64,000 nt of DNA from an uncultured Bacilli bacterium. Lineage in GTDB: Bacteria > Bacillota_I > Bacilli_A > RF39 > UBA660. Positions within the stretch are counted from its first letter, which is position 1; every line of letters starts with the position of its first letter. Of this stretch, positions 18,071-54,499 are shown in pieces. The DNA lies in contig CAKPMB010000003.1 of the NCBI GenBank assembly GCA_934167885.1, forward strand, positions 30,890 through 94,889, given 5' to 3'. The notes beneath the pieces were generated by a model. That model ran no database searches, was not told the DNA's origin, and worked only from the letters and a program-made list of their open reading frames with translations. The position numbers and the translations under genes were made by a program.

Positions 18071-18180
18071 TTAACTATAAGGTATCTTCTGAAATAAAAA
18101 TTTAATAATATATGATTTTTTAGTTATAAAATGCGAGTTTTGATAATATTTTTTAATGTAAATATATGATAAGGAGGTCT

Positions 18181-19431
18181 ATGGAAACGTTTATTTATGT
18201 TAATGCCAAAAAAAATATTGATGATGTTGCGTTTGAGGTTGTTGAAACAAAAGGTATGGGACATCCTGATAATATATGCGATGCTTTAGCGGAGAAGATA
18301 TCAGCCAATTATTCAAAGTATTGTTTATCAAAGTATGGCGTAATATTAAGACATATGATTGATAAATTATCAGTTCTTGGAGGAGGTTCAAAAGTATGGT
18401 TTCAAGGTGGTGAAATAACTTCTCCTATAAGAGTTTTAGTAAATGGTCGTTTTACAAATAATTTTAATAATGATCAAATTGATTATATGAAGATTGTTAA
18501 TAAAACTATTAAGACTTATTTTAAAAAATTATTTCCACTACTTAATGTGGAAAAAGATTTAGTAATAGTTGATAATACGCATCATAATGAAGGACCAGGC
18601 GTTGTTTACAATGATGACGGCACAACTTTAAATGAGCGTAAACGTTTTTTTGAAGTTGTTTCCAAAGAAGATTTACATCGTCATAATAATCATTTTAAAT
18701 GTAATGATACTTCTACAACTGTAAGTTATTATCCTATGAGTAAATTAGAAAAATTAGTTCTTGATATTGAAAAGACATTAAATAGTTCTGAATATAAAAA
18801 GAGAAATCCTTGGACAGGTAGTGATATTAAAGTAATGGGTATTAGAAAAGGTAGTCTTATTGAAATAACATCATGTGTTCCTTTAATATCAAAGTATGTT
18901 TTGAATTTAGATGATTACAAAGAAAAATTAAATAAAATAAAAAAAGATATAGCATCTATAATCGAAAAATATTTTGATGGAAATTATGCAATTTATTTAA
19001 ATACACGTGATAATTACGAAAAAAATGATATGTATATGACTGTTATTGGTAGTGCCATTGAAAGTGGTGATGAAGGAGCGGTTGGTCGTGGTAATCGTCC
19101 GATGGGTTTAATTCCTTTTTCACGTCATTTTAGTATGGAGGCTTCTTGTGGTAAAAATCCTGTATACCATACTGGCAAAATATTCTCTGCTATCGGTAAT
19201 GAAATAAGCAGGGCAATTTATGATAAATATCATGTTGAAAACATTGTTTATATGACTTCTAAAATGGGGGACGAAATGGAAAACCCTTGGAATGTTTCTG
19301 TTGAATTAAATGAAGATGTATCAACAAAGATTCGTGATGGTATTAATAAAATTGTTAATAAATATTTGAAAAAACACTATGATGTAACTAAAAAAATTAT
19401 TAATGGTAAGATAAAACTAAATAACTATTAG
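18181..19431 (+). CDS. Archaeal-type S-adenosylmethionine synthetase (MAT) homolog
   Basis: 416 aa from ATG 18181 (AAGGAGG RBS 18170-18176). Colinear with archaeal MAT as I recall it: ETKGMGHPDNICDALAE, NDTS, GSDIKVMGIRKG, GSAIESGDEGAVGRGNRPMG, SMEASCGKNPVYHTGKIF. Not MetK-like. Confidence 0.75.
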   Translation: METFIYVNAKKNIDDVAFEVVETKGMGHPDNICDALAEKISANYSKYCLSKYGVILRHMIDKLSVLGGGSKVWFQGGEITSPIRVLVNGRFTNNFNNDQIDYMKIVNKTIKTYFKKLFPLLNVEKDLVIVDNTHHNEGPGVVYNDDGTTLNERKRFFEVVSKEDLHRHNNHFKCNDTSTTVSYYPMSKLEKLVLDIEKTLNSSEYKKRNPWTGSDIKVMGIRKGSLIEITSCVPLISKYVLNLDDYKEKLNKIKKDIASIIEKYFDGNYAIYLNTRDNYEKNDMYMTVIGSAIESGDEGAVGRGNRPMGLIPFSRHFSMEASCGKNPVYHTGKIFSAIGNEISRAIYDKYHVENIVYMTSKMGDEMENPWNVSVELNEDVSTKIRDGINKIVNKYLKKHYDVTKKIINGKIKLNNY

Positions 19432-27071: not shown

Positions 27072-27113
27072 TTTGTTTATATAAAAAATGTTACAATTAA
27101 TATGTGGTGTTTT

Positions 27114-28532
27114 ATGAGTAGTAAAAAGAAGATAATAATTATAAGTTTAATTTTTATAATATTTATAGGTATTAGTATATTAATATTTTATTCAATACCT
27201 AGTTTTAAAGTTCAAAGTTTTGATGAAATACAAGAAATTGATGTTTTTAATAATTACGACAGTAGTAATATTAATGTTTGTTATGGTAATATTTTTAAAT
27301 GCACTAAAGTAATTCCTAGGAAAGAAGGTAGTGTTGATACTTATCATATAGGAAGTTATACCATAAAATGGATATGGGAGTATAAAGGTTCGACTTTAAC
27401 AAAAACACAAACTGTAAATGTTGTTGATAAGGAAAAGCCTGTTATTAAAGTAGAAGGTGATACAATTTATTATTGTCCAAATGGTAATATTAATGCTCCT
27501 AAAATAACAGCAACGGATAATTATGATGGTGATATAACCGATAAGATAACTAAAGAATTAATAGGTGATGTTTATCATTTAAAGGTTTTGGATTCATCAG
27601 GAAACATTGGTGAAGTTTCCTATAAAGCTTTAAAAAAAGATGAAGAAAAACCTAAAATAACGCTAAAAGGTGATAATCCTTTGTATATAAAAGTAGGTAG
27701 TTCATATAGTGAGCCTGGTTATAGTGCTACAGATAATTGTGATGGTGATGTCACTTCTAAAGTTAAAGTAAGTAATAATATTAAAACGAATAACGCTGGT
27801 GAGTATTATGTAAAGTATAGTGTTCAAGATGAAATGGGGAATACATCAACTGTTGAGAGAAAAGTATATGTTTATCGGGGAACCAATGTTATAACACCTA
27901 ATGGTAAAAGCATATATTTAACATTTGATGATGGACCATCAATGTATACTAATAAGTTGTTAGATATATTAAGAAAATATGATGTTAAAGCTACCTTTTT
28001 TGTCACTGACCAACCATCAAGGTATGATAGTTGTATTAAAAGAGCATATGATGAAGGCCATACTATTGCCATGCATAGTGCAACACATAATTATAAGTAT
28101 ATATATTCATCTACAGATAATTATTTTAAGGATTTAGAAAGAATTCAAAATAAAATAAAAAGAATCACAGGTGAAACACCGTATATGTTAAGATTCCCAG
28201 GTGGTAGTTCCAATACAGTAAGTCGAAATTATGATAAAGGAACTAAAATAATGAGCAAGTTAACCAAAATGGTTGAAGCAAGAGGATATCGTTATTTTGA
28301 TTGGAATGTCTCAAGTGGAGATGCAGGTAATACTACAAAAACAAGTAAGGTTTATAGTAATGTTGTTAATTCATTAGGCAATGGTAAAACATATATAGTT
28401 TTACAACATGATTCAAAAGGATACAGTGTAAATGCTGTTGAGGATATTATTAAATATGGTCTAAGTAGAGGATACAATTTCAGACCATTGACCATGAATA
28501 GTCCAACAATCCATCATGGCGTGAACAATTAA
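27114..28532 (+). CDS. Membrane-anchored polysaccharide deacetylase (NodB) with two DUF5011-type Ig-like domains
   Basis: 472 aa; N-terminal TM; ATDNYDGDIT and ATDNCDGDVT Ig-like repeats; NodB motifs YLTFDDGPS, MHSATHNY, LRFPGGS, VLQHD. Confidence 0.85.
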   Translation: MSSKKKIIIISLIFIIFIGISILIFYSIPSFKVQSFDEIQEIDVFNNYDSSNINVCYGNIFKCTKVIPRKEGSVDTYHIGSYTIKWIWEYKGSTLTKTQTVNVVDKEKPVIKVEGDTIYYCPNGNINAPKITATDNYDGDITDKITKELIGDVYHLKVLDSSGNIGEVSYKALKKDEEKPKITLKGDNPLYIKVGSSYSEPGYSATDNCDGDVTSKVKVSNNIKTNNAGEYYVKYSVQDEMGNTSTVERKVYVYRGTNVITPNGKSIYLTFDDGPSMYTNKLLDILRKYDVKATFFVTDQPSRYDSCIKRAYDEGHTIAMHSATHNYKYIYSSTDNYFKDLERIQNKIKRITGETPYMLRFPGGSSNTVSRNYDKGTKIMSKLTKMVEARGYRYFDWNVSSGDAGNTTKTSKVYSNVVNSLGNGKTYIVLQHDSKGYSVNAVEDIIKYGLSRGYNFRPLTMNSPTIHHGVNN

Positions 28533-28600
28533 TATTGAATAACATAATAATTTTTGATAAAATCATATTAGAAAAAATAAAACAAAGGATATGATGAAAA

Positions 28601-28641
28601 GTGTTAAATAGTATCAAAACAAATGTGTCAAAAAGTGTCAA
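28601..28641 (+). promoter_or_regulatory. Four phased GTNTNAA heptamers (candidate regulator-binding array), copy 1
   Basis: GTGTTAA 28601, GTATCAA 28611, GTGTCAA 28625, GTGTCAA 28635 (offsets 0/10/24/34). The heptamers are invariant in all three leaders, whereas the spacers differ. Confidence 0.35.
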
Positions 28642-28644
28642 TAT

Positions 28645-28653
28645 GGGGGGGGG
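28645..28653 (+). repeat. Homopolymeric G9 tract, copy 1
   Basis: Nine consecutive G counted directly, 85 nt upstream of ATG 28738. Confidence 0.95.
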
Positions 28654-28697
28654 TTACTTTATTGAGTAATCAACCTAATTTAGATTGTTTATTGAAG

Positions 28698-28725
28698 AGA
28701 ACAAGATTAAGTCTTGTTCTTTTAT
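28698..28725 (+). terminator. Terminator-like leader hairpin just upstream of the RBS, copy 1
   Basis: AGAACAAGA-ttaag-TCTTGTTCT (9 bp) followed by TTTAT, then GGAG RBS and ATG 28738; same element at 31463-31490 and 51631-51658. Confidence 0.4.
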
Positions 28726-28737
28726 GTGGAGTGAAAG

Positions 28738-31293
28738 ATGAAGACTAGGAAGAGTATATTAATGATATTAGGCCTAGTTTTATTGTTAGGCGGGAGTTAT
28801 GCTTTTTATACTTATCAAAAGTATAGTGATATGCAGAATCTTTTAAATGGTGAGATTTATCTAAATTATTTAGAAGATAATGAAGTGCATATAAGTGGCA
28901 TATTTCCAGAGACCAAAGAAGAAGCATTAAAAAGAAATGATAACACAATAAGCTTTAAAGTATTAAGCAAGAATACTAGTGATAAAGATATTTATTATGG
29001 TATTACTTTAAATTATGGCGAAGAGATAAGTAATAAGATTAGAATAGATGCTAAATACATCATGATATATCTAGAATGTGATGGTAAAGTCCTAATAGAT
29101 GGTATAAGATATAGTGACTTTAATAATCGAAGAATCTATGTAGACAAGATAGATGCCAAAACATATACTGAAACTACTAAAAATTACACTCTAAGATTCT
29201 GGGTAGATGAAGAAACCACAATAAGTGATACTGATAGTAATGCTAGTTATAAAGCCACCGAGTGGGCGAATAGTTACTTAAATTTTAAAGTGAATGTAGA
29301 CGCTGGTTTAGAAACGATGAACATGCCTTTATCAATGGAAACCAGTGATACTTATGTAGAAAATAATAAAGCTTATTTTATTGCCAAGATAAGCAACTTT
29401 ATAAATGTAGAAGATCTTGGTAAAGATAGTAACGATACGATGAATTTAAAAGTAACAGGCACTAATAGTGATATTAAGTTTAGTTATAAAGATAGTGAAG
29501 GAAATACCGTTGAAGAAAAGAGTGCTACTCTAGATTTAACCTATCTATTCACTAAAAATAAAACAGTTGAAATCCAAGTCTTTGTTCATCCAAACAACGA
29601 TGCAAATGGTAAAACCAATGTTCTTTTAGAAATATACAAAAATAAAGAATTAATGCAAAGTTTTATTAAAAGAGTAGAAGTTAAAGGCAATAACTATTGT
29701 TTAAATAATGGCTTTAATAAATTAGTTGATTGTATGTTAGTAAGTGATAGTTTAAGTGAATCTGTTGATGTTGCTAAAACCAATATTGTCAACAAAGGCG
29801 AACCAAACCTAAATGATACCGCTCCAACATATACCTATGTTGAACAATTAACTGAAGATGTATCAAATCCATATAGTTATAATAGTATTAAATTTGCCTT
29901 TTCTAAGACGTATGAATTTGATGAAACTACTGGAGGTTTTAAATTAAGTGGCGATGTAATTGTGGATTATTTAAGCGATAAGTATATTGAATATTATACC
30001 GGTGGTGCTTATTGGTCTAATTCTTTTGATAAAATATTTTTCGTTAAAGGTGTAGATGTTCAAGAAACATCTCAAAAAATAACTAAAGCCGATGTCATAA
30101 CATATAAGATTGCAAGTTCTATTAGGTCAGAGGTTGGACTTTACAAGACTGTTGATAATTATGGAGATGTCTATTACTATCGAGGGGATGTCCAAAATAA
30201 TAATGTTTATTTTGGCGGATTCTACTGGAAAGTAATAAGAACCAATGGAGATGGAAGTATTCGCTTAATATATAATGGAAAAAATCAAAATGAAAATTAT
30301 ATATCTATAAATAATAAAAAATATTTATATAGCAACGGACATTCTGATCCAACATATGTTGGTTATATGTATGGTGAAAATTTTAAGTTACAAACTAGTC
30401 CTGTAATTAATTATTCATATTTTTATGCGGTTGATACATATACATTTGCGGATAGTTATATATTTGACGAAGACAAAAAAATGTTTGTTTTAAGTGGTAA
30501 CACTATTTCTGGGACTTTTTCGGCAATTAAAGATGAAGTGTCAAATTATCCTTATTCTTGCTTTAGACAGAAACTTTCTAACCAAAATGAATGTCAAATA
30601 TTACTTAAAATAAATTCATATATAAGTTCTGATAAGGCAAGTGTTCAATTAATATCTTATTCATCACAAAACAGTGCTAATACACGAACTAATGATTATG
30701 ATAGTAATGTCAAGAATGAGATAGATTTATGGTATGAACAGAATATAATATCTAATGAAGATAGTTATAATAATAATTTAACAGATTATATTGTTGATAA
30801 TTCTTTTTGTAATGATAGGTCATTTGCTAGTAGTGTAGAATATAATTCTGGATATCGTGTATTTGAACGAACAAATTATGCACCTCTTTCAAGGATTTCC
30901 ACTAATGTTAATAAGAGTGCTACGTTAAAGTGTAATTGGGATGTAAGAGATATGTTTAGTGTAACAAGCGCATATGGTAATGCTAAACTAAAATACCCCA
31001 TTGCTTTAATAACTGTTGATGAAGTAGCCTTAGCAGGTGGTAAATCGTCGTATAAAAATATTAATTATTATTTAAATAGTAATGATATGTTTATAACAAT
31101 GACACCATCATTTTATTCGGAAGCAAATGTATTATCAAGTATGTTTTATGTGAAAAGAGATGGAGCAATTAATCAGTGGGGTTATGTCGATACGTTATAT
31201 TCTATCATGCCAGTAATCAACATTCGTTCTGATGTTTTAATATCATCTGGCGATGGAACAATGGATAATCCTTACACATTAAAATTAAAATAA
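28738..31293 (+). CDS. Mosaic membrane-anchored surface protein, paralog 1
   Basis: 851 aa; N-terminal anchor ILMILGLVLLLGGSYAFY. Residues 1-369 are nearly identical to paralogs 2 and 3. Conserved island YKIASSIRSEVGLYK..YGDVYYYRGDVQNNNVYFGG.YWK.IRTNGDGSIRLIY. C-terminal PVINIRSDVLISSGDG..NPY.LKL. Confidence 0.85.
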   Translation: MKTRKSILMILGLVLLLGGSYAFYTYQKYSDMQNLLNGEIYLNYLEDNEVHISGIFPETKEEALKRNDNTISFKVLSKNTSDKDIYYGITLNYGEEISNKIRIDAKYIMIYLECDGKVLIDGIRYSDFNNRRIYVDKIDAKTYTETTKNYTLRFWVDEETTISDTDSNASYKATEWANSYLNFKVNVDAGLETMNMPLSMETSDTYVENNKAYFIAKISNFINVEDLGKDSNDTMNLKVTGTNSDIKFSYKDSEGNTVEEKSATLDLTYLFTKNKTVEIQVFVHPNNDANGKTNVLLEIYKNKELMQSFIKRVEVKGNNYCLNNGFNKLVDCMLVSDSLSESVDVAKTNIVNKGEPNLNDTAPTYTYVEQLTEDVSNPYSYNSIKFAFSKTYEFDETTGGFKLSGDVIVDYLSDKYIEYYTGGAYWSNSFDKIFFVKGVDVQETSQKITKADVITYKIASSIRSEVGLYKTVDNYGDVYYYRGDVQNNNVYFGGFYWKVIRTNGDGSIRLIYNGKNQNENYISINNKKYLYSNGHSDPTYVGYMYGENFKLQTSPVINYSYFYAVDTYTFADSYIFDEDKKMFVLSGNTISGTFSAIKDEVSNYPYSCFRQKLSNQNECQILLKINSYISSDKASVQLISYSSQNSANTRTNDYDSNVKNEIDLWYEQNIISNEDSYNNNLTDYIVDNSFCNDRSFASSVEYNSGYRVFERTNYAPLSRISTNVNKSATLKCNWDVRDMFSVTSAYGNAKLKYPIALITVDEVALAGGKSSYKNINYYLNSNDMFITMTPSFYSEANVLSSMFYVKRDGAINQWGYVDTLYSIMPVINIRSDVLISSGDGTMDNPYTLKLK

Positions 31294-31295
31294 AT

Positions 31296-31502
31296 AATAT
31301 TGAATAACATGATAATATTTGATAAAATCATATTAGAAAAAATAAAACAAAGGATATGATGAAAAGTGTTAAATAGTATCAAAGAGAATGTGTCAAAAAG
31401 TGTCAATATGGGGGGGGGTTACTTTATTAAGTAACAAACCTAATTTAGATTGTAAACAATGTAGAACAAGATTAAGTCTTGTTCTTTTATGTGGAGCAAA
31501 AC
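31296..31502 (+). repeat. Conserved leader, copy 2
   Basis: Starts 3 nt after the stop of paralog 1; heptamers at 31366/31376/31390/31400, hairpin 31463-31485. Confidence 0.9.
31410..31418 (+). repeat. Homopolymeric G9 tract, copy 2
   Basis: Nine consecutive G counted directly. Confidence 0.95.
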
Positions 31503-34055
31503 ATGAAGACTAGGAAGAATATATTAATTGTATTAGGCCTAGTCTTATTGTTAGGCGGCAGTTATGCCTTTTATACTTATCAAAAGTATAGTGGTATGCA
31601 AAACCTTTTAAATGGTGAGATTTATCTAAATTATTTAGAAGATAATGAAGTGCATATAAGTGGCATATTTCCAGAGACTAAGGAAGAAGCTTTAAAAAGA
31701 GATGATAACACTATAAGTTTTAAAGTATTAAGCAAGAATACGAGTGACAAAGATATATATTATGGTATTACTTTAAATTATGGTGAAGAGATAAGTAATA
31801 AGGTGAGAATTGATGCTAAATATATTATGATATATCTAGAATGTGATGGTAAAGTATTGATTGATGGTATAAGGTATAGTGACTTTAATAATCGAAGAAT
31901 TTATGTAGATAAAATAGATACCAAAACATATACCGAAACTACTAAGAATTATACATTAAGGTTCTGGGTAGATGAAGAAACCACGATAAGTGATACCGAC
32001 ATTAATGCTAGTTACAAAGCAACTGAATGGGCGAATAGTTATTTAAATTTTAAGGTTAATGTTGACGCTGGTTTAGAAACGATGAACATGCCTTTATCCA
32101 TGGAAACAAGTGATACTTATGTAGAAAATAATAAAGCTTATTTTATTGCCAAGATAAGCAACTTTATAAATATAGAAGACCTTGGTAAGGACAGTAATGA
32201 TACCATGAATTTAAAAGTAAGTGGAACTAATAGTGACATTAAATTTAGTTATAAAGATAGTGAAGGCAATACTGTTGAAGAAAAGAGTGATACGCTAGAT
32301 TTAACCTATCTATTCACCAAGAATAAAACCGTTGAAATTCAAGTGTTTGTTCATCCAAATAATGATGCCAACGGAAAGACTAATGTTTTATTAGAAATAT
32401 ACAAAAACAAGGAACTAATGCAGAGTTTTATTAAAAGAGTAGAAGTAAAAGGTAATAACTATTGTTTAAACAATGGCTTTAATAAATTAGTTGATTGTAT
32501 GTTAGTAAGCGATAGTTTAAGTGAATCTATTGATATTGCTAAAACCAATATTGCCAACAAAGGCGAACCAAATTTAAATGATACGGCTCCAAGTTACACC
32601 TATGTTGAAAAAATAGAAGAAGGATTAAATAATCCATACAGTAGTTCGTTAAATAAGTTTCTTTTTTCAAAGACATATGAATTTGATGCTAAAACCGGTA
32701 AATATGCTTTAACTGGTAATATAATTCGTGATAATTTAAGTGATGACTATATTGGTTATTATACAATCGGAGCATCGAGCATAGATTATTATGAAGCTAA
32801 TACTATGTATAAAATTTCTGAAACTAAAAAAGAAGGCGATAATTACATTATAACGAAAGGTGATAAATATAGTTATAAGATTGCAAGTTCTATTCGTTCA
32901 GAAGTAGGTTTATATAAAAATGCTGATGATTATGGTGATGTTTATTACTATCGAGGTGACGTTCAAAATAATAATGTTTATTTTGGTGGGTATTACTGGA
33001 AGATTATAAGGACGAACGGCGATGGAAGTATTCGTTTGATATATAGTGGCAAGACTAAAAATGCTACTGGTAGTGGTGTATCAATAAATAGTCAAACTTA
33101 TTCATATAATACTAAGTATTTTGATCCAACCTATATGGGCTATATGTATGGTAAGAACTTTGTAGAACAAGAAAGTGAACAAACCCTTAATGTAACCTTT
33201 AATGCCTATACAAAATATCTTATTTCATCATCTTATGTATGGAATAGTGAGACAAATAAGTATGAATTAAGCGGCGATATTGTTAGTTCAACTCTTATTG
33301 ATATAAAAGATAATTTACAAAATTATCATTGGACTTGTAGAAGTGATACACAAAATAGTTGCGAAGTTTTATATAAAATTAATGCTGTTTATAGTGAAAG
33401 TCAAGCTTATGTTCAGTATCTTGCTCATTCTTCGGTTGATTTAGATGGCACTAGGACAAATGAATTCGATAGTGATGTTAAAAAGCAAATAGATTTATGG
33501 TATGCTAACAATATTATTAATGTCAAAGATTCTTTTAATAATTTATTAACAGATTATATTGTTGATAATACCTTTTGTAATGATCGAAGCATAACCGATA
33601 AAACATATAACTCTGGTTATAAATTAGGGAATCATACTTTTTATTCTCCTTATGGGAGAATTTATCAAAATGCTAACAAAACAGCGACATTAAAATGTTC
33701 GAGTGATGTGCGTAATCAGTTTAGCACAACTTCCATATATGGTAATGCTAACTTAACGTATCCTGTTGCTTTGATAACCCTAGATGAAGTAGTTTTAGCT
33801 GGTGGTAAGTATGATGCAAAGAATGAAAACTTTTTTCTTAATCAAAATGTTAATTATTGGACGATGACGCCAATGGTTTTTAGTTCTTATTATTTAAATG
33901 CATCTATCGGCCTTGTTTCGTTTTTGGGAAGTATTTTCAATGGTGCTTCTTTGAATAATAATGTGGTAAGGCCGGTTATTAACATTCGCTCTGACGTTTT
34001 AATATCATCAGGCGATGGGAGTGTTAACAATCCTTACATTTTGAAGATAAACTAG
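31503..34055 (+). CDS. Mosaic membrane-anchored surface protein, paralog 2
   Basis: 850 aa from ATG 31503 (MKTRKNILIV.., same RBS context as paralogs 1 and 3; ORF-track start 31479 is an upstream TTG inside the hairpin). Confidence 0.85.
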   Translation: MKTRKNILIVLGLVLLLGGSYAFYTYQKYSGMQNLLNGEIYLNYLEDNEVHISGIFPETKEEALKRDDNTISFKVLSKNTSDKDIYYGITLNYGEEISNKVRIDAKYIMIYLECDGKVLIDGIRYSDFNNRRIYVDKIDTKTYTETTKNYTLRFWVDEETTISDTDINASYKATEWANSYLNFKVNVDAGLETMNMPLSMETSDTYVENNKAYFIAKISNFINIEDLGKDSNDTMNLKVSGTNSDIKFSYKDSEGNTVEEKSDTLDLTYLFTKNKTVEIQVFVHPNNDANGKTNVLLEIYKNKELMQSFIKRVEVKGNNYCLNNGFNKLVDCMLVSDSLSESIDIAKTNIANKGEPNLNDTAPSYTYVEKIEEGLNNPYSSSLNKFLFSKTYEFDAKTGKYALTGNIIRDNLSDDYIGYYTIGASSIDYYEANTMYKISETKKEGDNYIITKGDKYSYKIASSIRSEVGLYKNADDYGDVYYYRGDVQNNNVYFGGYYWKIIRTNGDGSIRLIYSGKTKNATGSGVSINSQTYSYNTKYFDPTYMGYMYGKNFVEQESEQTLNVTFNAYTKYLISSSYVWNSETNKYELSGDIVSSTLIDIKDNLQNYHWTCRSDTQNSCEVLYKINAVYSESQAYVQYLAHSSVDLDGTRTNEFDSDVKKQIDLWYANNIINVKDSFNNLLTDYIVDNTFCNDRSITDKTYNSGYKLGNHTFYSPYGRIYQNANKTATLKCSSDVRNQFSTTSIYGNANLTYPVALITLDEVVLAGGKYDAKNENFFLNQNVNYWTMTPMVFSSYYLNASIGLVSFLGSIFNGASLNNNVVRPVINIRSDVLISSGDGSVNNPYILKIN

Positions 34056-44561: not shown

Positions 44562-45200
44562 ATGAAATTTACAAGTATTGGTCATCTTGATAGAGATGCT
44601 GTCTATCAATTGGTTAAGGAGAATTTTACCCAAGCAAGAAAGAATGAACCTATTTCTTCAGGCGATGAATTATTTCATCATAATACATCATATGATAATA
44701 TTACATCTGTTTTACAAAATGGGCTTTTATCATTTAATCGAATGAAGAGTTTAGGTATTAATAGAAGTGCTTACCAGGCCATAGACAATGTTAATGGTGA
44801 AGAGTATATATCAGTTAGTAGAAAAGAACATGCCTATAGTGCTTTTGATTTTGAATATAATTATGATAGTCCATTTGTTGTTGATTTCATTATAAGAGAT
44901 GAGATAAGAAAAAGGACGAATGTTATGCGCAATACAACTAATTACGTTAATGAATATTTAGTTTTAGATGAAATTCCTATTGAATACATCAAGTTGATGT
45001 CTGTTAGATTTATGCGTATGGCTAAAGCAATAAGTGAGCGTGATTCTTATTGGTCACTTGCATCTTTCATTAAACGCTACAATCAATTAATCGATGCCCT
45101 TCCTTTACTAGAAGATAAAAATATTCCTTTAATTGAAAATAGTGAAGAAATTATTCATGTAGATAAATCTAAATTAAAATCATTAGGTAAATTAAAATAG
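44562..45200 (+). CDS. PARP-like (H-Y-E class) ADP-ribosyltransferase-fold protein (tentative)
   Basis: 212 aa. LFHHNTSYDNITSVLQNGL parallels PARP LWHGSR..N...IL.QGL; GEEYISVS sits at the Tyr position; YVNEYLVLDEIPIEYIKL parallels YNEYIVYD......YLL. Confidence 0.45.
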   Translation: MKFTSIGHLDRDAVYQLVKENFTQARKNEPISSGDELFHHNTSYDNITSVLQNGLLSFNRMKSLGINRSAYQAIDNVNGEEYISVSRKEHAYSAFDFEYNYDSPFVVDFIIRDEIRKRTNVMRNTTNYVNEYLVLDEIPIEYIKLMSVRFMRMAKAISERDSYWSLASFIKRYNQLIDALPLLEDKNIPLIENSEEIIHVDKSKLKSLGKLK

Positions 45201-47596: not shown

Positions 47597-50500
47597 TGCC
47601 AAATTGGACACGTGAACAAGAACAAGCCATCTATAAAAGTGGCACGAATATTATTGTTTCAGCAGGAGCAGGAAGTGGTAAAACCGCTGTTTTATCAGAA
47701 CGTGTTTTACAAAAAGTATTAAATGGTGTTTCCATCGATAGACTATTAATTCTAACTTTCACCAATCTAGCAGCTCGTGAAATGAAAGAACGTATTCGTA
47801 AAAAAATTAAAAAAGATAAATCCTTAATTAATCAATTAAACAAACTAGATGGTAGCTATATTACAACATTCGATAGTTATTCTTTATCTCTTGTAAAAAA
47901 ATACCATTACTTACTAAATATTTCGCGTAATGTTAATATTATCGATAAAAATATTTTAGATATGGAAGTCTCTAAATATTTAGATGAAATTTTTGAAAAT
48001 AGATATCAAAATCAAGATAAACTATTCCTTAATTTAATAAATGATTTTTGTATTAAAGATGATAAAAGTATTAAGCAAGAAATATTAAAATTAAATGATA
48101 AATTAAATATGCGTTATGATAAAGATACATATTTAAATTCTTATTTTGATGTATATTATAGTGATGAATTTATCGATAAACGAATTTTAGAATATATTAA
48201 TTTAGTAAAAGATAAAGTTAGAAACATAGATACTTTAATTAACAAATTATATGATTTTTGTGATAGTGACTATGTTAATGATTTATTAAATATTTTTACA
48301 CCTTTAAAAAATGCTCAGTCATATGAAGATTATTTAGTGTCGTTTAATATAAAATTGCCAAACTTAAAAAGAGGTAGTGAAGAAGAAGCGAAAAAGATTA
48401 AAGCTTGCATTAGTGATGAATTAAAAAATGTTAAGAACATGCTTATTTTTGAAAATACTAATGATATGAAAAAATCTATTTTAGATACTAAAAACTATTT
48501 AGAATGTATTATTTCAATAATTAGAGAATTAGATGAAAAAGTTAATGATTATAAGCATCAAAACGATTTATATGACTTTGTAGATATTAGTAAGTTAGCA
48601 ATAAAAATAGTTAAAGAAAATGAAGGTATAAGAGAAGAAATAAAAAATTATTTTGAAGAAATATTAGTAGATGAATATCAAGATACTAGTGATTTACAAG
48701 AAGAGTTTATATCATTAATCGCTAATAACAATGTTTATATGGTAGGCGATATAAAACAATCAATATATCGTTTTAGAAACGCTAATCCTAATATTTTTAA
48801 GAATAAATATGATAATTATAGTAATCATCAAGGTGGTGAAAAAATTGATTTATTAAAAAACTTCCGATCACGAAGAGAAGTATTAGATAATATTAATTTA
48901 TTTTTTGAATTTATTTTAGATGATTATATTGGAGGAGCAGATTATCGCTCGTCACATGAAATGGTCTTTGGTAATAACACCTATGAAGAAGCTGGTAAAA
49001 CCAACCAAGATTACAATATGGAAATATATGAGTATTTCTATGATAAAAATAGTTCATATAATAAAAATGAAATAGAAGCTTTTATTATTGCTAATGATAT
49101 AAAAGAAAAAGTCGCTAATCACTATCAAATATTTGATAAAGATAACCAAGTATTAAGAGACATAACTTATAATGACTTTGTTATTTTAATTGATAGAAGC
49201 ACCCCATTTGAATTATATAAAAAAATATTTTTATACTTACAAGTTCCTATAACTATTTTAATAGATGAATACTTAAATAAAAGTAATGACTTATTAGTTA
49301 TTAAAAATATTTTTAATTTAATTAAATTAGTTAAAGAAAAAAATTTTTCTAAAGAATTTATTTATAGTTTTTTAAGTGTATCTCGAAGTTTTCTATTTAA
49401 TTATGATGATAATACGATATTTAAAATAATTAGTGAAAAATCATATGAAAACACAGTTCTTTATCAAAAAATTACTAATATTTTAAATGATATCGATAGT
49501 TTAACCATTAATGAAGTATTAGATAAAATTATTATAGAATTTAATTATTATGAAGCATTAATTAAGGTTGGTAATGTTAAAGAAAGTATTGTTAGAATCG
49601 ATTATTTAAATGAACTTGCATCTAACCTTACACAGTTAGGATATACATATTTAGACTTTGCAAAATTTATTGAAAATATTTTTAATGAAGAACGTGATAT
49701 TCGTTTCTCACTTGATAGTGAAAGTGGTAATAGTGTTAAAATAATGTCCATTCATAAATCCAAAGGCCTTGAATATCATCTATGTTATTTCCCTTGTCTT
49801 TATCCTAAATTTAATGAAAGTGATTTAAAAGAAAAATTTATTTATGATAAAGAATTAGGCATAATCAGTCCATATTTTAATGAAGGAATAGGCGATAGTT
49901 TTTATAAGGAAATATTCAAAAATAATTATAAAAAAGAAGAGATTGGAGAAAAAATAAGGTTATTCTATGTTGCCCTAACAAGAGCAAAAGAAAAAATGAT
50001 TATGGTAATCCCTAAATATTCTTTAGAAGAAGAATTAGACGACTATCTTAATACCGACAAAGTTGTTGAAAACGATACAAGATTACATTATAATTCTTTT
50101 TTAAGTATGATTAATTCTATAAAAATATACCTAAAAGATTATATTAAAGAAATTGATATAAATAATCTAAGCCTTACCAAGAAATATAATCTTGTTAAAA
50201 AAGATAATGTTTTTGAAAATATTAAAGATGTTAATGAAAAGATAGTTATCAAGAAAACAAGTGAAATTAAAGAAGAAAAGATCCTAGAAAGTCATTTCTC
50301 TAAGAGTAATAATCAACTAATAGATAAACAAAGTGCCAAAAACTTAGAATTTGGAACGCATATGCATTATTTATTAGAAATGATTGATTTTAATAATATA
50401 GATAATTATGATATAGAACCACAATATAAAGGATACATAAAAAAGTTTATAAACTGTGCATTATTAAAAAATCTTAAAGATGCTAAAGTTTATAAAGAAT

Positions 50501-50730
50501 ATGAGTTTATTTATAATGAAGATACTGAAATAAAACATGGTATTATTGACTTAATGCTTGAATATGAAGAGTATATTGATATCATTGATTATAAATTAAA
50601 AAACATTGATGATAGTCACTATTATGATCAACTAAAAGGTTATCAAGAATATATCATGCATAAAACTAAAAAAGATGTCCATCTATATTTATATTCTATT
50701 ATTAGTGGTGAATACGAAAAAATTAATTAG
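47596..50730 (+). CDS. addA: ATP-dependent helicase/nuclease AddAB, subunit A
   Basis: 1044 aa; UvrD-type helicase motifs AGAGSGKT, ILVDEYQDT, GDIKQSIYRFR, SIHKSKGLE, YVALTRAKE and C-terminal nuclease IIDLM..IIDYK. Confidence 0.93.
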   Translation: MPNWTREQEQAIYKSGTNIIVSAGAGSGKTAVLSERVLQKVLNGVSIDRLLILTFTNLAAREMKERIRKKIKKDKSLINQLNKLDGSYITTFDSYSLSLVKKYHYLLNISRNVNIIDKNILDMEVSKYLDEIFENRYQNQDKLFLNLINDFCIKDDKSIKQEILKLNDKLNMRYDKDTYLNSYFDVYYSDEFIDKRILEYINLVKDKVRNIDTLINKLYDFCDSDYVNDLLNIFTPLKNAQSYEDYLVSFNIKLPNLKRGSEEEAKKIKACISDELKNVKNMLIFENTNDMKKSILDTKNYLECIISIIRELDEKVNDYKHQNDLYDFVDISKLAIKIVKENEGIREEIKNYFEEILVDEYQDTSDLQEEFISLIANNNVYMVGDIKQSIYRFRNANPNIFKNKYDNYSNHQGGEKIDLLKNFRSRREVLDNINLFFEFILDDYIGGADYRSSHEMVFGNNTYEEAGKTNQDYNMEIYEYFYDKNSSYNKNEIEAFIIANDIKEKVANHYQIFDKDNQVLRDITYNDFVILIDRSTPFELYKKIFLYLQVPITILIDEYLNKSNDLLVIKNIFNLIKLVKEKNFSKEFIYSFLSVSRSFLFNYDDNTIFKIISEKSYENTVLYQKITNILNDIDSLTINEVLDKIIIEFNYYEALIKVGNVKESIVRIDYLNELASNLTQLGYTYLDFAKFIENIFNEERDIRFSLDSESGNSVKIMSIHKSKGLEYHLCYFPCLYPKFNESDLKEKFIYDKELGIISPYFNEGIGDSFYKEIFKNNYKKEEIGEKIRLFYVALTRAKEKMIMVIPKYSLEEELDDYLNTDKVVENDTRLHYNSFLSMINSIKIYLKDYIKEIDINNLSLTKKYNLVKKDNVFENIKDVNEKIVIKKTSEIKEEKILESHFSKSNNQLIDKQSAKNLEFGTHMHYLLEMIDFNNIDNYDIEPQYKGYIKKFINCALLKNLKDAKVYKEYEFIYNEDTEIKHGIIDLMLEYEEYIDIIDYKLKNIDDSHYYDQLKGYQEYIMHKTKKDVHLYLYSIISGEYEKIN

Positions 50731-50732
50731 TT

Positions 50733-51434
50733 TTATTCTTTTATTAATTCATCAATTAAAACAATATGGTAATTATTGCTAGTAATATAGCTAATAATTA
50801 AATGTAAATCATTTAAGTTATTTTTAAAGTTATAATATAAAATATTACCATGTTGTATTTTATCTTTAGTATTAATCCAATATTGATTAGTAATATTATT
50901 CTTTATAAAAATAGTATACATTTTCTTTGAAATACAAGTTTTATTAACTTTTATTTCATTACTAAGACAATATTTATTATTAATAATATTATCAATTTCA
51001 TAATTTATAGAAACATTATATTGATTAACTATTTTCTTTATATTATTTAATTCATCATCGTTATTAACGTGAATAATAATACTAATATTATTTTTATAAA
51101 TATTGCCATACAAAATTAATTTGTTATATTTTTTATCGATAGTTAAATTAGGCTTTTTGTCATTAAAAACAAGCAATGTTTCATCAAAATAGCCTAATTT
51201 TTTCATTTTTTTATAGCTTTCATCTAAATTAATTTTAGTTCCCTTATTACCAGGAATAATGAAATTTTCAGTTATTATAGCATTAATTTCTTGGGTTTCA
51301 TAAAGTGATTTATGACTAATAATCTCTTGCATAATAGGATCTTGCTTTTTTAAAATATTTATTAAAACTTTAGTTAAAAGCGAACTTAATAAACTAAGCA
51401 TAATTGTCCAAATTAATTGTTTTTTCTTCATCAT
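50733..51434 (-). CDS. Membrane-anchored protein, unknown function
   Basis: 233 aa; N-terminal helix LIWTIMLSLLSSLLTKVLI; Asn/Ile-rich; no family recognised. Confidence 0.45.
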   Translation of the reverse strand: MMKKKQLIWTIMLSLLSSLLTKVLINILKKQDPIMQEIISHKSLYETQEINAIITENFIIPGNKGTKINLDESYKKMKKLGYFDETLLVFNDKKPNLTIDKKYNKLILYGNIYKNNISIIIHVNNDDELNNIKKIVNQYNVSINYEIDNIINNKYCLSNEIKVNKTCISKKMYTIFIKNNITNQYWINTKDKIQHGNILYYNFKNNLNDLHLIISYITSNNYHIVLIDELIKE

Positions 51435-51479
51435 TTAAGTTTATGATTAAATACTAAAAAAATTTATTGGACTTTCATT

Positions 51480-51670
51480 ATGATTTTTGATAGAATGATG
51501 GTAGAAAAAATAAAACAAAGGGTATGATGAAAAGTGTTAAATAGTATCAAATTAAATGTGTCAAATAGTGTCAACATGGGGGGGGGTTACTTTATTAAGT
51601 AACAAACCTAATTTAGAGTGTAAACGGGTTAGAACAAGATTAAGTCTTGTTCTTTTATGTGGAGTAAAAG
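51480..51670 (+). repeat. Conserved leader, copy 3
   Basis: Homology to leaders 1 and 2 begins near tgatttttgata; heptamers at 51534/51544/51558/51568, hairpin 51631-51653. Confidence 0.9.
51578..51586 (+). repeat. Homopolymeric G9 tract, copy 3
   Basis: Nine consecutive G counted directly. Confidence 0.95.
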
Positions 51671-54226
51671 ATGAAGACTAGGAAATATATGCTGATGATG
51701 TTAGGCCTAGTCTTATTGTTAGGCGGAAGTTATGCGTTTTACACTTATCAAAAATATAGTGGGATGCAGAATCTTTTAAATGGTGAGATTTATCTAAATT
51801 ATTTAGAAGACAATGAAGTTCATATAAGTGGCATATTTCCAGAGACAAAAGAAGAAGCTTTAAAGAGAAATGATAACACGATAAGTTTTAAAGTATTAAG
51901 TAAGAATACGAGTGACAAAGATATCTATTATGGTATTACTTTAAATTATGGTGAAGAGATAAGTAATAAGATTAGGATAGATGCTAAATACATTATGATA
52001 TACCTAGAATGTGATGGTAAAGTTTTAATAGATGGAATAAGGTATAGTGACTTCAATAATCGAAGAATCTATGTAGACAAGATAGATGCCAAAACATATA
52101 CGGAAACTACTAAAAATTATACTTTAAGATTCTGGGTAGATGAAGAAACAACAATAAGTGATACCGATAGTAACGCTAGTTACAAAGCCACGGAGTGGGC
52201 GAATAGTTATTTAAATTTTAAAGTCAATGTCGATGCCGGCTTAGAAACCATGAACATGCCCTTATCAATGGAAACTAGTGATACTTATGTAGAAAATAAT
52301 AAAGCTTATTTTATCGCTAAGATAAGTAACTTTATAAATATAGAAGATCTTGGTAAAGACAGCAACGATACTATGAACTTAAAAGTAAGTGGCACCAATA
52401 GTGATATCAAATTCAGTTATAAGGATAGTGAAGGAAATATTGTTGAAGAAAAGAGTGACACATTAGATTTAACCTATCTATTTACCAAAAACAAAACAGT
52501 TGAAATTCAAGTCTTTGTGCATCCAAATAATGATGCAAATGGAAAAACTAATGTTTTTTTAGAAATATACAAAAACAAAGAATTAATGCAAAGTTTTATC
52601 AAAAGAGTAGAAGTGAAAGGAAACAACTATTGCTTAAACAATGGTTTTAATAAATTAGTTGATTGTATGTTAGTAAGTGATAGTTTAAGCAATTCAGTTG
52701 ATGTTGCCAAGACTAACATTTCTAATAAAGGTGAACCAAATTTAAATGATACCGCTCCAACTTATACATATGTTGAAGAACTAACAGAAGATGTAGAAAA
52801 TCCATACAACATCACAGGATATAAATTTAATTTTTCACAAACATATGAATTTGATGAAAAGACTGGAACGTTTAAACTAACAGGTGATATTATAACAGAT
52901 TATTTGAGTGATGATTATATAGGATACTGGACAGGGGGCGGAACAAATGTAGGATATTCTAATTTGAATAATATATACTTTGTAAAGGAAATAGATGCAT
53001 CAACAATCAATTATAAGATAACAAAGGCAGATGTTCAAACATATAAAATTGCAACTTCCATTCGGTCAGAAGTAGGGTTATATAAAACTGAAGATGATTA
53101 TGGTGATGTTTATTACTATCGTGGTGATGTTCAAAATAATAATGTTTATTTTGGAGGATACTATTGGAAAATAATAAGAACAAACGGTGACGGAAGTATT
53201 AGATTAATTTATAATGGTGCATTAAAAGATAGTAATGGCGATAATGTATCAATAAATAATAAAATATATCCCTACAATAGAAGATATCAAGATCCAACCT
53301 ATGTTGGTTATATGTATGGTAAAAATTTTGCACATCAAATAAGCGAAGAAACTAAGTATTATGATATGGCGGTTTCAACTAAATATTATTTTGCAGATGA
53401 TTATGAGTTTGATGAAACTACTGAGAATTACAAATTAAAAGGAAATATAAAACAAGGAACTTTTAATGAGATGAAAGATGAGTTCGAAGCATATCCATAT
53501 ACTTGCCGAAGAACAAGTTCAACTTCATCATGTGAAGTATTAATAAAGGTAAATAGTTTATCGACAGGAACAAGTATTAATGTTCAATATTATTCATATT
53601 CCTCAACAAGCTTAGATGGCACCAGGACAAATGAAGTATCAAATAGTGCTAAAACACAACTAGATGACTGGTATGCTACAAATGTGGTCAGCAAATCTGA
53701 CAGTGATGGCAATTTATTAACAAATTATATTGTGGATGAAAGATTTTGCAATGACCGCAGTATAACAGATGAGATATTTAATTCAGGCTATAAACTAACT
53801 CAAAAAACGTATTATGCACCATATGCGCGATTATATAGAAATGCTAATAAGACTGCGACTTTAAAATGTTCAAGTGATGTTCGAGATCAATTCAGCAAGA
53901 CATCGTCTCGTGGCAATGCAAGATTAACGTATCCTGTAGCGTTAATAACAGCCGATGAAGTAGTTTTTGCTGGTGGTAAATATAATGTTAAAAATGAAAA
54001 ATATTATTTATGCTCAAATGCATCTGCTTGGACTATGACACCATTTCGTTTTGAAACAGATAATGTCTATGCATATAATTTGTTTATTAATAAAAATGGT
54101 TCGATATTTACTAATGGTGTAATTTCGTCTCATGCTATACGGCCTGTTATCAATATTCGTTCCGATGTCTTAATATCAAGTGGTGACGGCACCAAATCTA
54201 GCCCATACCACTTAAAACTACAATAA
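51671..54226 (+). CDS. Mosaic membrane-anchored surface protein, paralog 3
   Basis: 851 aa; same anchor, same conserved N-terminal 369 aa, conserved island and C-terminal RPVINIRSDVLISSGDG..PY.LKL; variable blocks unique. Confidence 0.85.
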   Translation: MKTRKYMLMMLGLVLLLGGSYAFYTYQKYSGMQNLLNGEIYLNYLEDNEVHISGIFPETKEEALKRNDNTISFKVLSKNTSDKDIYYGITLNYGEEISNKIRIDAKYIMIYLECDGKVLIDGIRYSDFNNRRIYVDKIDAKTYTETTKNYTLRFWVDEETTISDTDSNASYKATEWANSYLNFKVNVDAGLETMNMPLSMETSDTYVENNKAYFIAKISNFINIEDLGKDSNDTMNLKVSGTNSDIKFSYKDSEGNIVEEKSDTLDLTYLFTKNKTVEIQVFVHPNNDANGKTNVFLEIYKNKELMQSFIKRVEVKGNNYCLNNGFNKLVDCMLVSDSLSNSVDVAKTNISNKGEPNLNDTAPTYTYVEELTEDVENPYNITGYKFNFSQTYEFDEKTGTFKLTGDIITDYLSDDYIGYWTGGGTNVGYSNLNNIYFVKEIDASTINYKITKADVQTYKIATSIRSEVGLYKTEDDYGDVYYYRGDVQNNNVYFGGYYWKIIRTNGDGSIRLIYNGALKDSNGDNVSINNKIYPYNRRYQDPTYVGYMYGKNFAHQISEETKYYDMAVSTKYYFADDYEFDETTENYKLKGNIKQGTFNEMKDEFEAYPYTCRRTSSTSSCEVLIKVNSLSTGTSINVQYYSYSSTSLDGTRTNEVSNSAKTQLDDWYATNVVSKSDSDGNLLTNYIVDERFCNDRSITDEIFNSGYKLTQKTYYAPYARLYRNANKTATLKCSSDVRDQFSKTSSRGNARLTYPVALITADEVVFAGGKYNVKNEKYYLCSNASAWTMTPFRFETDNVYAYNLFINKNGSIFTNGVISSHAIRPVINIRSDVLISSGDGTKSSPYHLKLQ

Positions 54227-54228
54227 AA

Positions 54229-54269
54229 AGGCAAGTGTTAATAAAATCTAAATTAACATTCGCCTTTTC
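54229..54269. terminator. Bidirectional terminator between paralog 3 and rpmB
   Basis: AGGCAAGTGTTAAT-aaaatctaa-ATTAACATTCGCCT (14 bp, one mismatch, one G-U), flanked by an A-run upstream and TTTT downstream. Confidence 0.65.
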
Positions 54270-54313
54270 TTTAAAATTATAAATGTTTGTAATAGAATAC
54301 AAAAAAAGAAGAA

Positions 54314-54499
54314 TTATTCTTCATTTGATTTCATGCTTCTTTTATATTTCTTAGCTTCTCTTGTTGTAACCTTAATTTTAGTTCCGTCTTCTAATGTAAC
54401 ATTTTGTAAGTTAAGATTTTGTGTATGTCTTGTTGCATTAAGTGCATGACTACGACGATTACCAAATAATGGTTTCTTTTGTGTAGCTTTAATTGCCAT
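54314..54499 (-). CDS. rpmB: 50S ribosomal protein L28
   Basis: 61 aa; KKPLFGNRRSHALNATRHTQNLNLQ typical of L28; GGAGG RBS. Confidence 0.93.
   Translation of the reverse strand: MAIKATQKKPLFGNRRSHALNATRHTQNLNLQNVTLEDGTKIKVTTREAKKYKRSMKSNEE

Follow-up and report, generated by a model that had tools for sequence, protein, structure and literature searches.

Three paralogous genes, each behind its own poly-G leader

We analyzed a 64,000-nucleotide (nt) stretch of DNA from an uncultured Bacilli bacterium (RF39; UBA660; contig CAKPMB010000003.1, positions 30,890 to 94,889), called the window here. We found that it holds three paralogous genes, c1, c2 and c3, two in tandem and one apart, each encoding a protein of about 850 amino acids (aa) and each preceded by a leader of roughly 200 nt that carries a run of nine G residues (Table 1). 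The mechanically called open reading frame (ORF) of c2 begins at TTG 31479; the counterpart of the c1 and c3 starts is the ATG at 31503, which follows GTGGAG.

The three proteins are 72–74% identical over their whole length, with 96–98% identity in aa 1–369 and 53–59% in the C-terminal halves. At the DNA level, identity is about 0.85–0.97 in the N-terminal half (first 1.1 kb) and 0.35–0.8 in the C-terminal half, and an island (about aa 458–516) and the tail RPVINIRSDVLISSGDG are conserved across all three copies. By the Nei-Gojobori method, the N-half has a synonymous divergence (dS) of 0.55–0.81 and a nonsynonymous divergence (dN) of 0.017–0.020 (omega 0.024–0.036), and the C-half has a saturated dS of 1.25–1.63 and an omega of 0.24–0.34; aa 801–828 alone give an omega of about 0.75–1.5, a value from a short stretch with saturated dS and an unreliable alignment. 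Among nine genes of several strains, N-half dS is 0.37–1.12 with no within-genome excess of similarity. Hence, the constancy of the N-half reflects selection, and recent gene conversion was rejected as its cause since these genes are not homogenized within genomes. The paralogs are old, with N-half dS of 0.4–1.1 and saturated C-halves.

A preliminary description of this DNA had reported three paralogs of ~850 aa, a tandem pair and a third copy, with a near-identical first ~369 aa under purifying selection, and the ORFs, identities and substitution rates above bear this out. It had also set the start of the repeated unit at the stop codon of the upstream deacetylase gene, where the similarity between c1 and c2 indeed begins (TAA, 28530–28532), and again 3 nt past the stop codon of c1 (TAA, 31291–31293), where we measured 1–2 nt.

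Table 1. Features of the paralogous units and of neighboring genes (positions in the window)
Feature	Position	Strand	Other copies	Remarks
Paralog c1, 851 aa	28738–31293	+		ORF and translation
Paralog c2, 850 aa	31503–34055	+		ORF and translation; head to tail with c1
Paralog c3, 851 aa	51671–54226	+		17.6 kb downstream, between addA-like gene and rsmE
Leader (of c1)	28533–28737	+	c2 31294–31502; c3 about 51465–51670	
Promoter-like site, TTGAAT, 17 nt, TGaTAAAAT (extended -10)	28535–28563	+	c2 31300–31328; c3 51467–51496 (TTGGAC ... TGATAGAAT)	consensus match only; conserved in related lineage
Leader-ORF ribosome-binding site, AAAGGA	28584–28589	+		
Leader ORF, 22 codons, VLNSIKTNVSKSVNMGGGYFIE then stop	28601–28669	+	c2 31366–31434; c3 51534–51602	
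Direct repeat, TGTCAA-N4-TGTCAA	28626–28641	+	c2 31391–31406; c3 51559–51574	inside leader ORF, immediately upstream of G9
G9 homopolymer	28645–28653	+	c2 31410–31418; c3 51578–51586	
Alternative frame	28654–28748	+	c2 to 31513; c3 to 51681	reached by -1 G or +1 ribosomal shift; stop TAG 28746–28748 overlaps c1 codons 3–4
Terminator-like hairpin, AGAACAAGA-TTAAG-TCTTGTTCT, then TTTTAT	28698–28720	+	c2 31463–31485; c3 51631–51653	
Constant N-module, c2 aa 1–369	31503–32609	+	c1 28738–29844; c3 51671–52777	omega 0.02–0.04; mean pairwise identity 0.95 (43 homologs)
Variable beta-rich subdomain (var1), c2 aa 370–457	32610–32873	+		pairwise identity 0.39–0.72; co-varies with rest of C-half
Island, c2 aa about 458–555 (YGDVYYYRGDVQNNNVYFGGYYWKIIRTNGDGSIRLIY...DPTYMGYMYG)	32874–33167	+		N-terminal core of DUF6273-like domain; flanks start of Pfam DUF6273 matches in P0219
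Family-specific beta insertion (var2a), c2 aa about 556–647	33168–33443	+		inside DUF6273-like domain; absent from most relatives
C-terminal core of DUF6273-like domain, c2 aa about 648–850	33444–34052	+		motifs FCNDRS, NKTATLKC, YPVALITLDEV, WTMTP, RPVINI
Hypervariable patch, c2 aa 790–821	33870–33965	+	c1 roughly 31114–31209; c3 roughly 54047–54142	just before last conserved strand
Polysaccharide deacetylase fused to bacterial surface Ig-like domain	27102–28532			directly upstream of c1; stop codon overlaps start of c1 unit
233-aa ORF with N-terminal hydrophobic segment	50733–51434	-		divergent from c3; kept beside same locus in L151
828-aa ORF	59767–62253			no Pfam match, no signal-like N-terminus

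The C-terminal half carries a divergent DUF6273-type domain

We modeled c2 with AlphaFold2 from an alignment of 46 family sequences, which also served to count conserved Cys residues; pairwise identities throughout are from 43 close homologs. The model (predicted local distance difference test, pLDDT, 80.6) has a helix at aa 2–29, within the signal or anchor segment (aa 1–29), followed by two beta-sandwiches (about aa 40–190 and 206–315) and a short helical linker, which complete the N-module. Six Cys residues are invariant across the alignment, and the linker holds the invariant C321 and C332. A beta-rich region (aa 366–650) and a mixed C-terminal part follow; modeled separately, aa 355–850 reached a pLDDT of 88.6 and a predicted TM-score (pTM) of 0.83.

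By local dissection of profile matches, we found that hidden Markov model (HMM) positions 469–555, the island, abut positions 648–852, the tail module, directly in most relatives. Hence, aa 556–647 of c2 are an insertion of roughly 90 aa. The joined unit of island and tail, roughly 290 aa, is tandemly repeated 2–11 times in relatives of up to 4905 aa.

Segments of relatives to which Pfam assigns DUF6273 (PF19789) are matched by the family profile at 1e-35. In P0163 and P0183 it scores 110 bits each, at 524–723 and 261–446, and these segments hold PF19789 matches at 606–704 and 342–429, respectively; in P0219, P0237 and P0263, PF19789 matches of 51–81 bits are bracketed by island and tail matches. 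In all five relatives, the PF19789 matches lie within tail-module matches and have island matches around them. The PF19789 matches that overlap the joined unit score 49–81 bits (cut-off 23.5), and Pfam recognizes 10 of 67 strong relatives. N-domain 1 is also fused to canonical DUF6273 proteins, and aligning the family with P0219 by hhalign matched only the N-domain.

Searching the C-half model against BFVD gave as top match a DUF6273 protein of a gut siphovirus (E = 1.5e-5, probability 0.97, with TM-scores low, at about 0.2), and DUF6273-annotated entries account for 7 of the top 34 matches. A full-length Foldseek search of the PDB returned only generic Ig-like sandwiches (GH2, transglutaminase, RbmA, CupB6 and WxLIP, at TM about 0.1), and the N-domain profile found nothing relevant among PDB sequences.

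Judged by these matches, the island and the tail are the two ends of one divergent DUF6273-type domain interrupted by the insertion, and the window family is a new, unnamed branch of the DUF6273 superfamily. The faint DUF6273-type likeness that the preliminary description had seen in the C-terminus was thus right as remote homology, reached through the PF19789 matches of relatives and the phage DUF6273 fold matches and not through a direct Pfam match. DUF6273 has been described as C-type-lectin-like and as a target of diversity-generating retroelements (DGRs), with the variable region at the C-terminus of the domain, and it is a favored DGR target in the receptor-binding proteins of gut phages (PMC10743442, PMC11792537).

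Compared with these proteins, which include the DGR phage "tentaclins" and the DGR targets of Faecalibacterium prophages, the window family shares the remote homology of the island and tail core, the Ig-like sandwich partners, variability just before the C-terminal strand and a setting in gut Firmicutes. It differs in lying below Pfam detection, in the insertion and in an extra N-terminal beta subdomain; its genes are cellular, with an export signal, and diversify by paralogy and unit exchange with no retroelement.

Some relatives bear the same head on type IV pilin N-termini (N_methyl) or on Flg_new repeats, which would fit a displayed binding module. Elsewhere the DUF6273-like unit is joined to an ALK/LTK-type glycine-rich domain and to type IV pilin N-methylation motifs (P0148, P0124, P0123 and two members of the A5 alignment); some of these relatives, of 3500–4900 aa, have 7–11 tandem units.

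Whole units, not cassettes, are exchanged

The pairwise identities of the C-half segments co-vary (Spearman 0.69–0.88), and their correlation with the N-half is 0.05–0.18. Hence, the proteins have a single evolutionary boundary, at about aa 369, and show no sign of independently swapped cassettes. The preliminary description had proposed a constant scaffold with swappable distal cassettes separated by the island; the conservation of island and tail stood, and both the cassettes and the role of the island as a separator between them did not, since the C-half behaves as a single block and the exchange that we observed replaces the whole transcribed unit.

This exchange was found by comparing the window with a contig from a Hadza gut, L151. 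When L151:1–5717 is compared with window 48671–54400, identity is 97–100% through addA and the divergently oriented gene of 233 aa, as far as the c3 promoter. From the start of the leader on, identity falls to the level of paralogs (leader 0.91, N-half 0.85–0.96, C-half 0.44–0.73), and the protein encoded in L151 shares 96% identity with an allele found at another locus, behind an RluB-like gene in L021. The left junction of the replaced segment lies between promoter and leader ORF. The comparison shows one entire unit, leader and gene, evidently replaced between strains at the same locus. Diversity in the family would then come from old paralog divergence together with replacement of whole units between chromosomal sites, and not from internal shuffling of cassettes. 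A second leader follows the L151 gene, so that a tandem array stands there and a single copy at the c3 locus of the window.

Variability peaks at aa 790–821, where pairwise identity is 0.17–0.27 and DNA identity 0.35–0.54. This patch sits where DGRs mutate phage DUF6273 proteins (PMC11792537). By analogy with those DGR-targeted receptor-binding proteins, we place the putative ligand-binding face in the loop region of aa 790–821, before the last strand.

We found no reverse transcriptase domain among the window ORFs scanned, no template repeat in the window and no adenine-restricted or template-like pattern in the patch, and the tail behind it is conserved only at the protein level (dS at least 1.4). 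A DGR was rejected as the diversifier here on these grounds.

The leader holds a poly-G run inside a short ORF

The three leaders have a mean column identity of 88%, which is above that of synonymous sites, and are nearly invariant from 28570 to the ATG of c1; a leader was present upstream of every family gene examined in the window lineage. Neither this conservation nor the G run had been noted in the preliminary description. Each comprises a candidate extended -10 promoter, a short leader ORF with a ribosome-binding site, a direct repeat, the G9 run and a terminator-like hairpin that ends 17 nt before the main ATG, which is itself preceded by GTGGAG. The 3′ arm of this hairpin can pair instead with AAAAGATGAAGACT, sequestering the start codon, at -13.7 kcal/mol (-14.0 kcal/mol for the terminator-like hairpin), and a small hairpin uses the end of the G run.

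The run is far from a product of base composition in a window of 27% GC: the three G9 runs are its only G or C runs of at least 7, its 6 occurrences of G8 (two overlapping positions per G9) all lie in the three leaders, and shuffles give 0.11. In about 400 kb of family loci, all runs of at least 8 lie in leaders, on the gene strand. A search of the window with Rfam 15 gave nothing but a tRNA above the gathering score; for the leaders, even the best matches, at E >= 2.5, fell far below the cut-offs.

In two other lineages, at about 45–50% protein identity, the leaders can be aligned to those of the window only in short blocks. Both keep the plan, in that their leader ORFs have a ribosome-binding site and read the run as GGG codons (LINMLNNSRNKVNSMSTTGGG and MNDSFTNTNTPTLQNFTWGGGGRNTL, each followed by a stop), and hairpins with U-runs, stronger than those of the window lineage, follow in the same place. 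In all three lineages, a 6-mer is also directly repeated at a 10-bp period just upstream of the run (TGTCAA twice; GTTAAC/GTCAAC; TTTACA-N4-TTTACA, L020:5835–5852). On the minus strand, the repeat of the window lineage reads as two perfect TTGACA boxes.

Four other readings of the leader were considered and rejected. An invertible promoter (minus strand, C9-N3-TTGACA) has only short AT-rich flanking inverted repeats and no good minus-strand -10, and the hexamer of the third lineage is on the other strand. A G run that spaces -35 and -10 elements fails in the second lineage, which has no conserved -10 at the right distance. An upstream ORF from ATGTGT has no ribosome-binding site, and the leader ORF in the neighboring frame has one. 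Pairing of poly-G with a pyrimidine-rich terminator arm, as for pyrG, is not transferable to the hairpins of the other lineages.

The leader also occurs outside the family. A gene in L143 (from 5597), for a protein of ~1380 aa with Flg_new (Listeria-Bacteroides) repeats, stands behind the same leader, G9 and hairpin included (L143:5380–5600), and its product has a signal like that of the family (MKTKKYVFIILILVLLLGTSYAFF). Hence, leader and signal form a module common to surface-protein families. At L002:5373–5831, an insertion of roughly 430 bp stands right after the G10 run of the leader, with 17-bp inverted repeats (AATGTAGTCAACTTAAG and CTTAAGTTGACTACATT) and a duplicated GTCTAAACCGC; it looks like a miniature inverted-repeat transposable element (MITE) with a target-site duplication that parts the leader ORF from its gene.

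Run length sets the frame of the leader ORF

In its default frame, the leader ORF stops early. When one G is lost, the frame that results is free of stops for 92 nt in all 14 leaders of the window lineage; it crosses both the hairpin and the ribosome-binding site, and the first base of its TAG lies 8 nt past the A of the main ATG (ATGAAGACTAG). The second lineage shows the same geometry independently in L004, where the gain of one G leads into a frame open for 121 nt.

Long-frame configurations also exist in nature, in L143:5461–5607, L005, L148 and L145:1010–1150. In the first of these, a 1-nt deletion upstream of the run joins the leader ORF to the long frame, and L005 and L148 have G9 where their siblings carry G8. 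Paralogs of the second lineage carry G8, G9 and G10 with identical flanks, which gives different leader-ORF frames. Scanning metagenomes for run-length polymorphism with GTCAAYATN{4,18}TTACTTTATT, a loose pattern, returned unrelated contigs, and none of the matches listed carried the element.

A proposed explanation: exported binding proteins gated by the leader

The explanation that we favor, and rate as slightly on the probable side, is that the genes are autonomous expression units for multi-copy exported binding proteins, gated by the poly-G leader. The protein would combine an export signal (probably cleaved and SipW/TasA-like, see below), a nearly invariant stalk or docking module of two beta-sandwiches and the Cys-containing linker, and a diversified head formed by the beta-rich subdomain and the divergent DUF6273-type domain with its insertion. 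Transcripts from the upstream promoter would have to pass the terminator-like hairpin, and the reading frame of the leader ORF, as set by the run, would determine if ribosomes get past the hairpins to re-initiate at the main ATG. A change of run length by slippage, or a frameshift at the GGG codons, would toggle the leader ORF and so turn single copies on.

The leader would thus be a frame-toggling attenuator, maybe a phase-variable one; because run-length variation is absent in the window lineage, we offer the switching as a hypothesis. That the poly-G leader ORF is a previously undescribed contingency switch, in which a 1-nt slip of DNA or ribosome would act through antitermination and termination-reinitiation to give one-at-a-time expression over at least 10 dispersed units, is an idea that we hold tentatively and think rather unlikely. 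No report of a terminator controlled by a homopolymer within a leader peptide turned up in the literature searched. For the proteins, a binding role, as adhesin or receptor-binding protein, is our best inference; the preliminary description had likewise suggested a variable surface adhesin or receptor-binding family, and we keep the binding role and drop the cassettes on which it had based the variability.

Several observations weigh against the explanation as a whole. As to the head, PF19789 has no match in the window proteins at E <= 1 over their full length or, with the limit raised to E <= 10, over their last 391 aa, searches of NCBIfam and of PDB sequences gave no direct match, and the C-half model found no PDB fold match at E < 0.04 and neither C-type-lectin nor formylglycine-generating enzyme (FGE) entries. 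Hence, a C-type-lectin fold of the C-half is not supported directly. No ligand was found for the window proteins.

As to export, we found no sipW or endoplasmic reticulum (ER)-type signal peptidase gene, by Pfam family, among the window ORFs scanned or in the gene tables of 13 related loci. The Pfam search of c1–c3 likewise gave no LPXTG, SLH, CWB2 or LysM match, and the proteins have no hydrophobic tail, ending in ...GDGS/TxxNPYxLKxx.

As to the leader, its ORF starts with GTG, 11 nt from a weak ribosome-binding site, and the 10-bp-periodic repeat beside the run, which points to a DNA- or RNA-binding factor, is left unexplained by a leader-ORF model. The probability that shuffling leaves any frame open to the ATG is modest (P = 0.10 for the window lineage, 0.06 for L004), and the leaders of one lineage are not independent, which weakens this statistic. 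To our knowledge, ribosome-mediated transcription attenuation is uncommon in Firmicutes, in which RNA polymerase outruns the ribosomes. Run length is G9 in 13 of the 14 window-lineage leaders, the remaining one being G8+T, a substitution of equal length, and all run lengths were read from consensus assemblies only. Such invariance in a consensus does not refute switching, because the poly-G tracts associated with tpr genes in Treponema pallidum are mostly 9 G in consensus and yet have sub-populations of 7–11 G that alter expression (PMC7864442).

A probably cleavable export signal and the possibility of a fiber

The window proteins begin with a K-rich segment, 15 hydrophobic residues and GGSYA↓FYTY (the arrow marks the putative cleavage site by comparison with TasA). 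Across the superfamily, the N-terminus is K-rich with about 15 hydrophobic residues, G-(V/S)-(T/S)-Y-A-F-F-T-Y and then xxITGDIYMNY. The SipW-dependent signal of TasA has aromatic residues around its cleavage site, GGGTWA↓AFND (PMC10269814). The window N-terminus thus seems closer to a cleavable signal of the SipW/TasA type than to a membrane anchor, a motif likeness judged by eye and unproven. The proteins had been described at first as membrane-anchored: their export holds, and an anchor is not established, given the seemingly cleavable type of signal and the finding of no retention motif in the window proteins. A cleaved protein that docks or polymerizes through the invariant N-half is an attractive alternative to an anchor.

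Carried further, this alternative makes the proteins subunits or tip proteins of a TasA-like, SipW-processed extracellular fiber, with an N-half that polymerizes or docks and a DUF6273-like head that decorates the fiber. We regard it as possible, with the odds against it. Besides the N-terminal motifs, it would account for the missing anchor and for the extreme conservation of the N-half, which needs a conserved partner. Relatives match the N-terminal part of Peptidase_M73 below threshold (E = 7e-4 to 1e-3, best 4.5e-7), and one matches TIGR04088 (E = 0.38; 11 bits, cut-off 19). Like TasA, CalY and BsaA, the window proteins have aromatics flanking a ...YA↓F... site, then an xxGxIxxx strand, a beta-sandwich N-domain, no wall anchor and a spore-forming Firmicute host. 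However, the window proteins themselves match neither Peptidase_M73 nor TIGR04088, the N-domain profile finds no TasA among PDB sequences, and Foldseek with the full model returns Ig-like sandwiches and not TasA, so that a TasA-like match is missing by sequence and by fold alike. They are also four times larger, with a lectin-like head, and no sipW-like gene is adjacent to them, in the window or at the 13 related loci.

Is the run a switch?

The favored explanation, in which the run toggles the leader, has to be set against two readings of the same leader. In one, no genetic switching is involved: the leader acts as an ordinary attenuator or a structured regulatory RNA, and the G run is fixed, either as three rare GGG glycine codons at which ribosomes stall or as the 5′ arm of a stem with a downstream CCU/CCGCC. 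Attenuation in its classical form relies on a leader peptide that holds a run of a regulatory codon. The constancy of run length in the window lineage, even where a substitution occurs, is what this reading expects, and base pairing of the run with a C-rich segment further downstream is predicted for every lineage. It does not account for the G8, G9 and G10 runs with otherwise identical flanks that shift the leader-ORF frame among second-lineage paralogs, for a shifted frame kept open to the main start in two lineages or for the lack of an Rfam family match, and a G9 in a genome of 27% GC is intrinsically prone to slippage. We consider a fixed run a live possibility and on balance an improbable one.

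The window leader shares its layout of promoter, short ORF, alternative hairpins or terminator and gene with known leader attenuators (trp and his; the translational attenuators of erm and cat; the invertible flgB leader of Clostridioides difficile). In C. difficile, termination within the leader turns a surface protein ON and OFF stochastically; the invertible leader of C. difficile cwpV reportedly causes termination. The toggle proposed here differs from these in being a leader-ORF frame set by a homopolymer, and not amino-acid supply, an antibiotic or DNA inversion.

In the other reading, the run and the periodic repeats form a site at the DNA level: a regulator binds the repeats, the run spaces a weak downstream promoter, and the hairpin serves as a 5′ stabilizer and read-through insulator, on the model of how Bordetella fim poly-C and Treponema tpr poly-G are thought to act. 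The repeat upstream of the run in three lineages speaks for it, the more so as a 10-bp period cannot be a feature at the codon level. Paralogous tpr genes of T. pallidum use a promoter poly-G, mostly 9 G in consensus (PMC7864442), and the hairpin of c2 is the only terminator candidate for c1 transcripts. Yet no acceptable -35/-10 pair stands at a conserved distance downstream of the run; the good extended -10 promoter that is conserved lies on the other side, before the leader ORF. Run and hairpin are spaced very differently from lineage to lineage, and no regulator gene is consistently linked. We judge this reading unlikely.

The poly-G and poly-C contingency loci (T. pallidum tpr and the tp0126 promoter, Neisseria porA and opc, Campylobacter, Bordetella fim) resemble the window in having a run of G8–10 at each paralog that is wildly improbable by base composition. 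The window run differs from them in lying inside a small leader ORF upstream of a terminator-like hairpin, and not in a promoter spacer or a main ORF, and in showing no length variation in the consensus assemblies of the window lineage.

That the proteins are prophage-derived receptor-binding or tail-fiber proteins, or DGR targets, instead of cellular surface proteins is very improbable: although the best fold matches are phage DUF6273 proteins together with some tail-fiber entries, and DUF6273 is often a DGR target, every copy is flanked by housekeeping genes and equipped with a promoter, a leader and an export signal of its own, the window holds no phage genes, reverse transcriptase or template repeat, and neither the variable patch, which lacks an adenine-restricted pattern, nor the tail, conserved only as protein (dS at least 1.4), looks retroelement-made.

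Multi-gene surface lipoproteins in which the 5′ region and the signal are conserved and the exposed part varies are also known from a low-GC relative of the Bacilli, Mycoplasma (Vlp, Vsa, Vpma, Mpl), where they are switched by promoter poly-A or by site-specific inversion. The window units differ from these in having no lipobox, recombinase or inverted repeats.

Genomic setting, host and distribution

The neighboring genes in the window are housekeeping genes: ribosomal proteins, RNase J, purA/purB, addAB-like genes, rsmE and ABC transporters. No phage gene, recombinase or reverse transcriptase was found by Pfam among the window ORFs scanned. The deacetylase gene with an Ig-like domain upstream of c1 encodes a further envelope protein. 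Two other genes stand out. An S-adenosylmethionine synthetase of the archaeal type, unusual in a bacterium, is encoded at 18166–19431 (PF01941, E = 8e-105), and a 212-aa ORF at 44562–45200, just upstream of the addAB-like genes, has a weak, sub-threshold N-terminal match to DarT, a single-stranded DNA ADP-ribosyltransferase (E = 5e-4; 20.2 bits, cut-off 22.5).

Across related loci, family copies are scattered among differing housekeeping genes, each with its own leader. One metagenome-assembled genome (MAG) holds 10 family loci, and many loci are cut by contig ends. Related contigs encode the sporulation proteins YabP, YqfD, CotE, SpoIVB and SpoIIP as well as Mur genes. Hence, the host is a spore-forming monoderm. 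All GTDB representative genomes in which the family was found are MAGs that bear the title "uncultured Bacilli bacterium" and come from the guts of humans (Hadza, Brazilian) and rabbit. It comprises at least 619 clusters at 90% identity, none of which has a name or a Pfam domain, and its profile matches 9241 representatives in a search over 1.84 billion (50% clustering).

Significance

The family is large, unnamed and largely invisible to Pfam, and it is confined here to uncultured gut Bacilli of humans and rabbit. Our analysis ties it to the DUF6273 class, described as lectin-like, which gut phages hypermutate to retarget binding; it identifies a likely binding face and shows whole expression units moving from one chromosomal site to another. 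Other surface proteins share the leader and signal module, and the leader would serve as the junction at which units are exchanged between loci. If the poly-G run is a switch, it would be a new mechanism of phase variation, by homopolymer-controlled attenuation or coupling through a leader peptide, and would provide antigenic or adhesive variation in a commensal Firmicute. An uncultured gut commensal would then express its repertoire of lectin-like heads one at a time.

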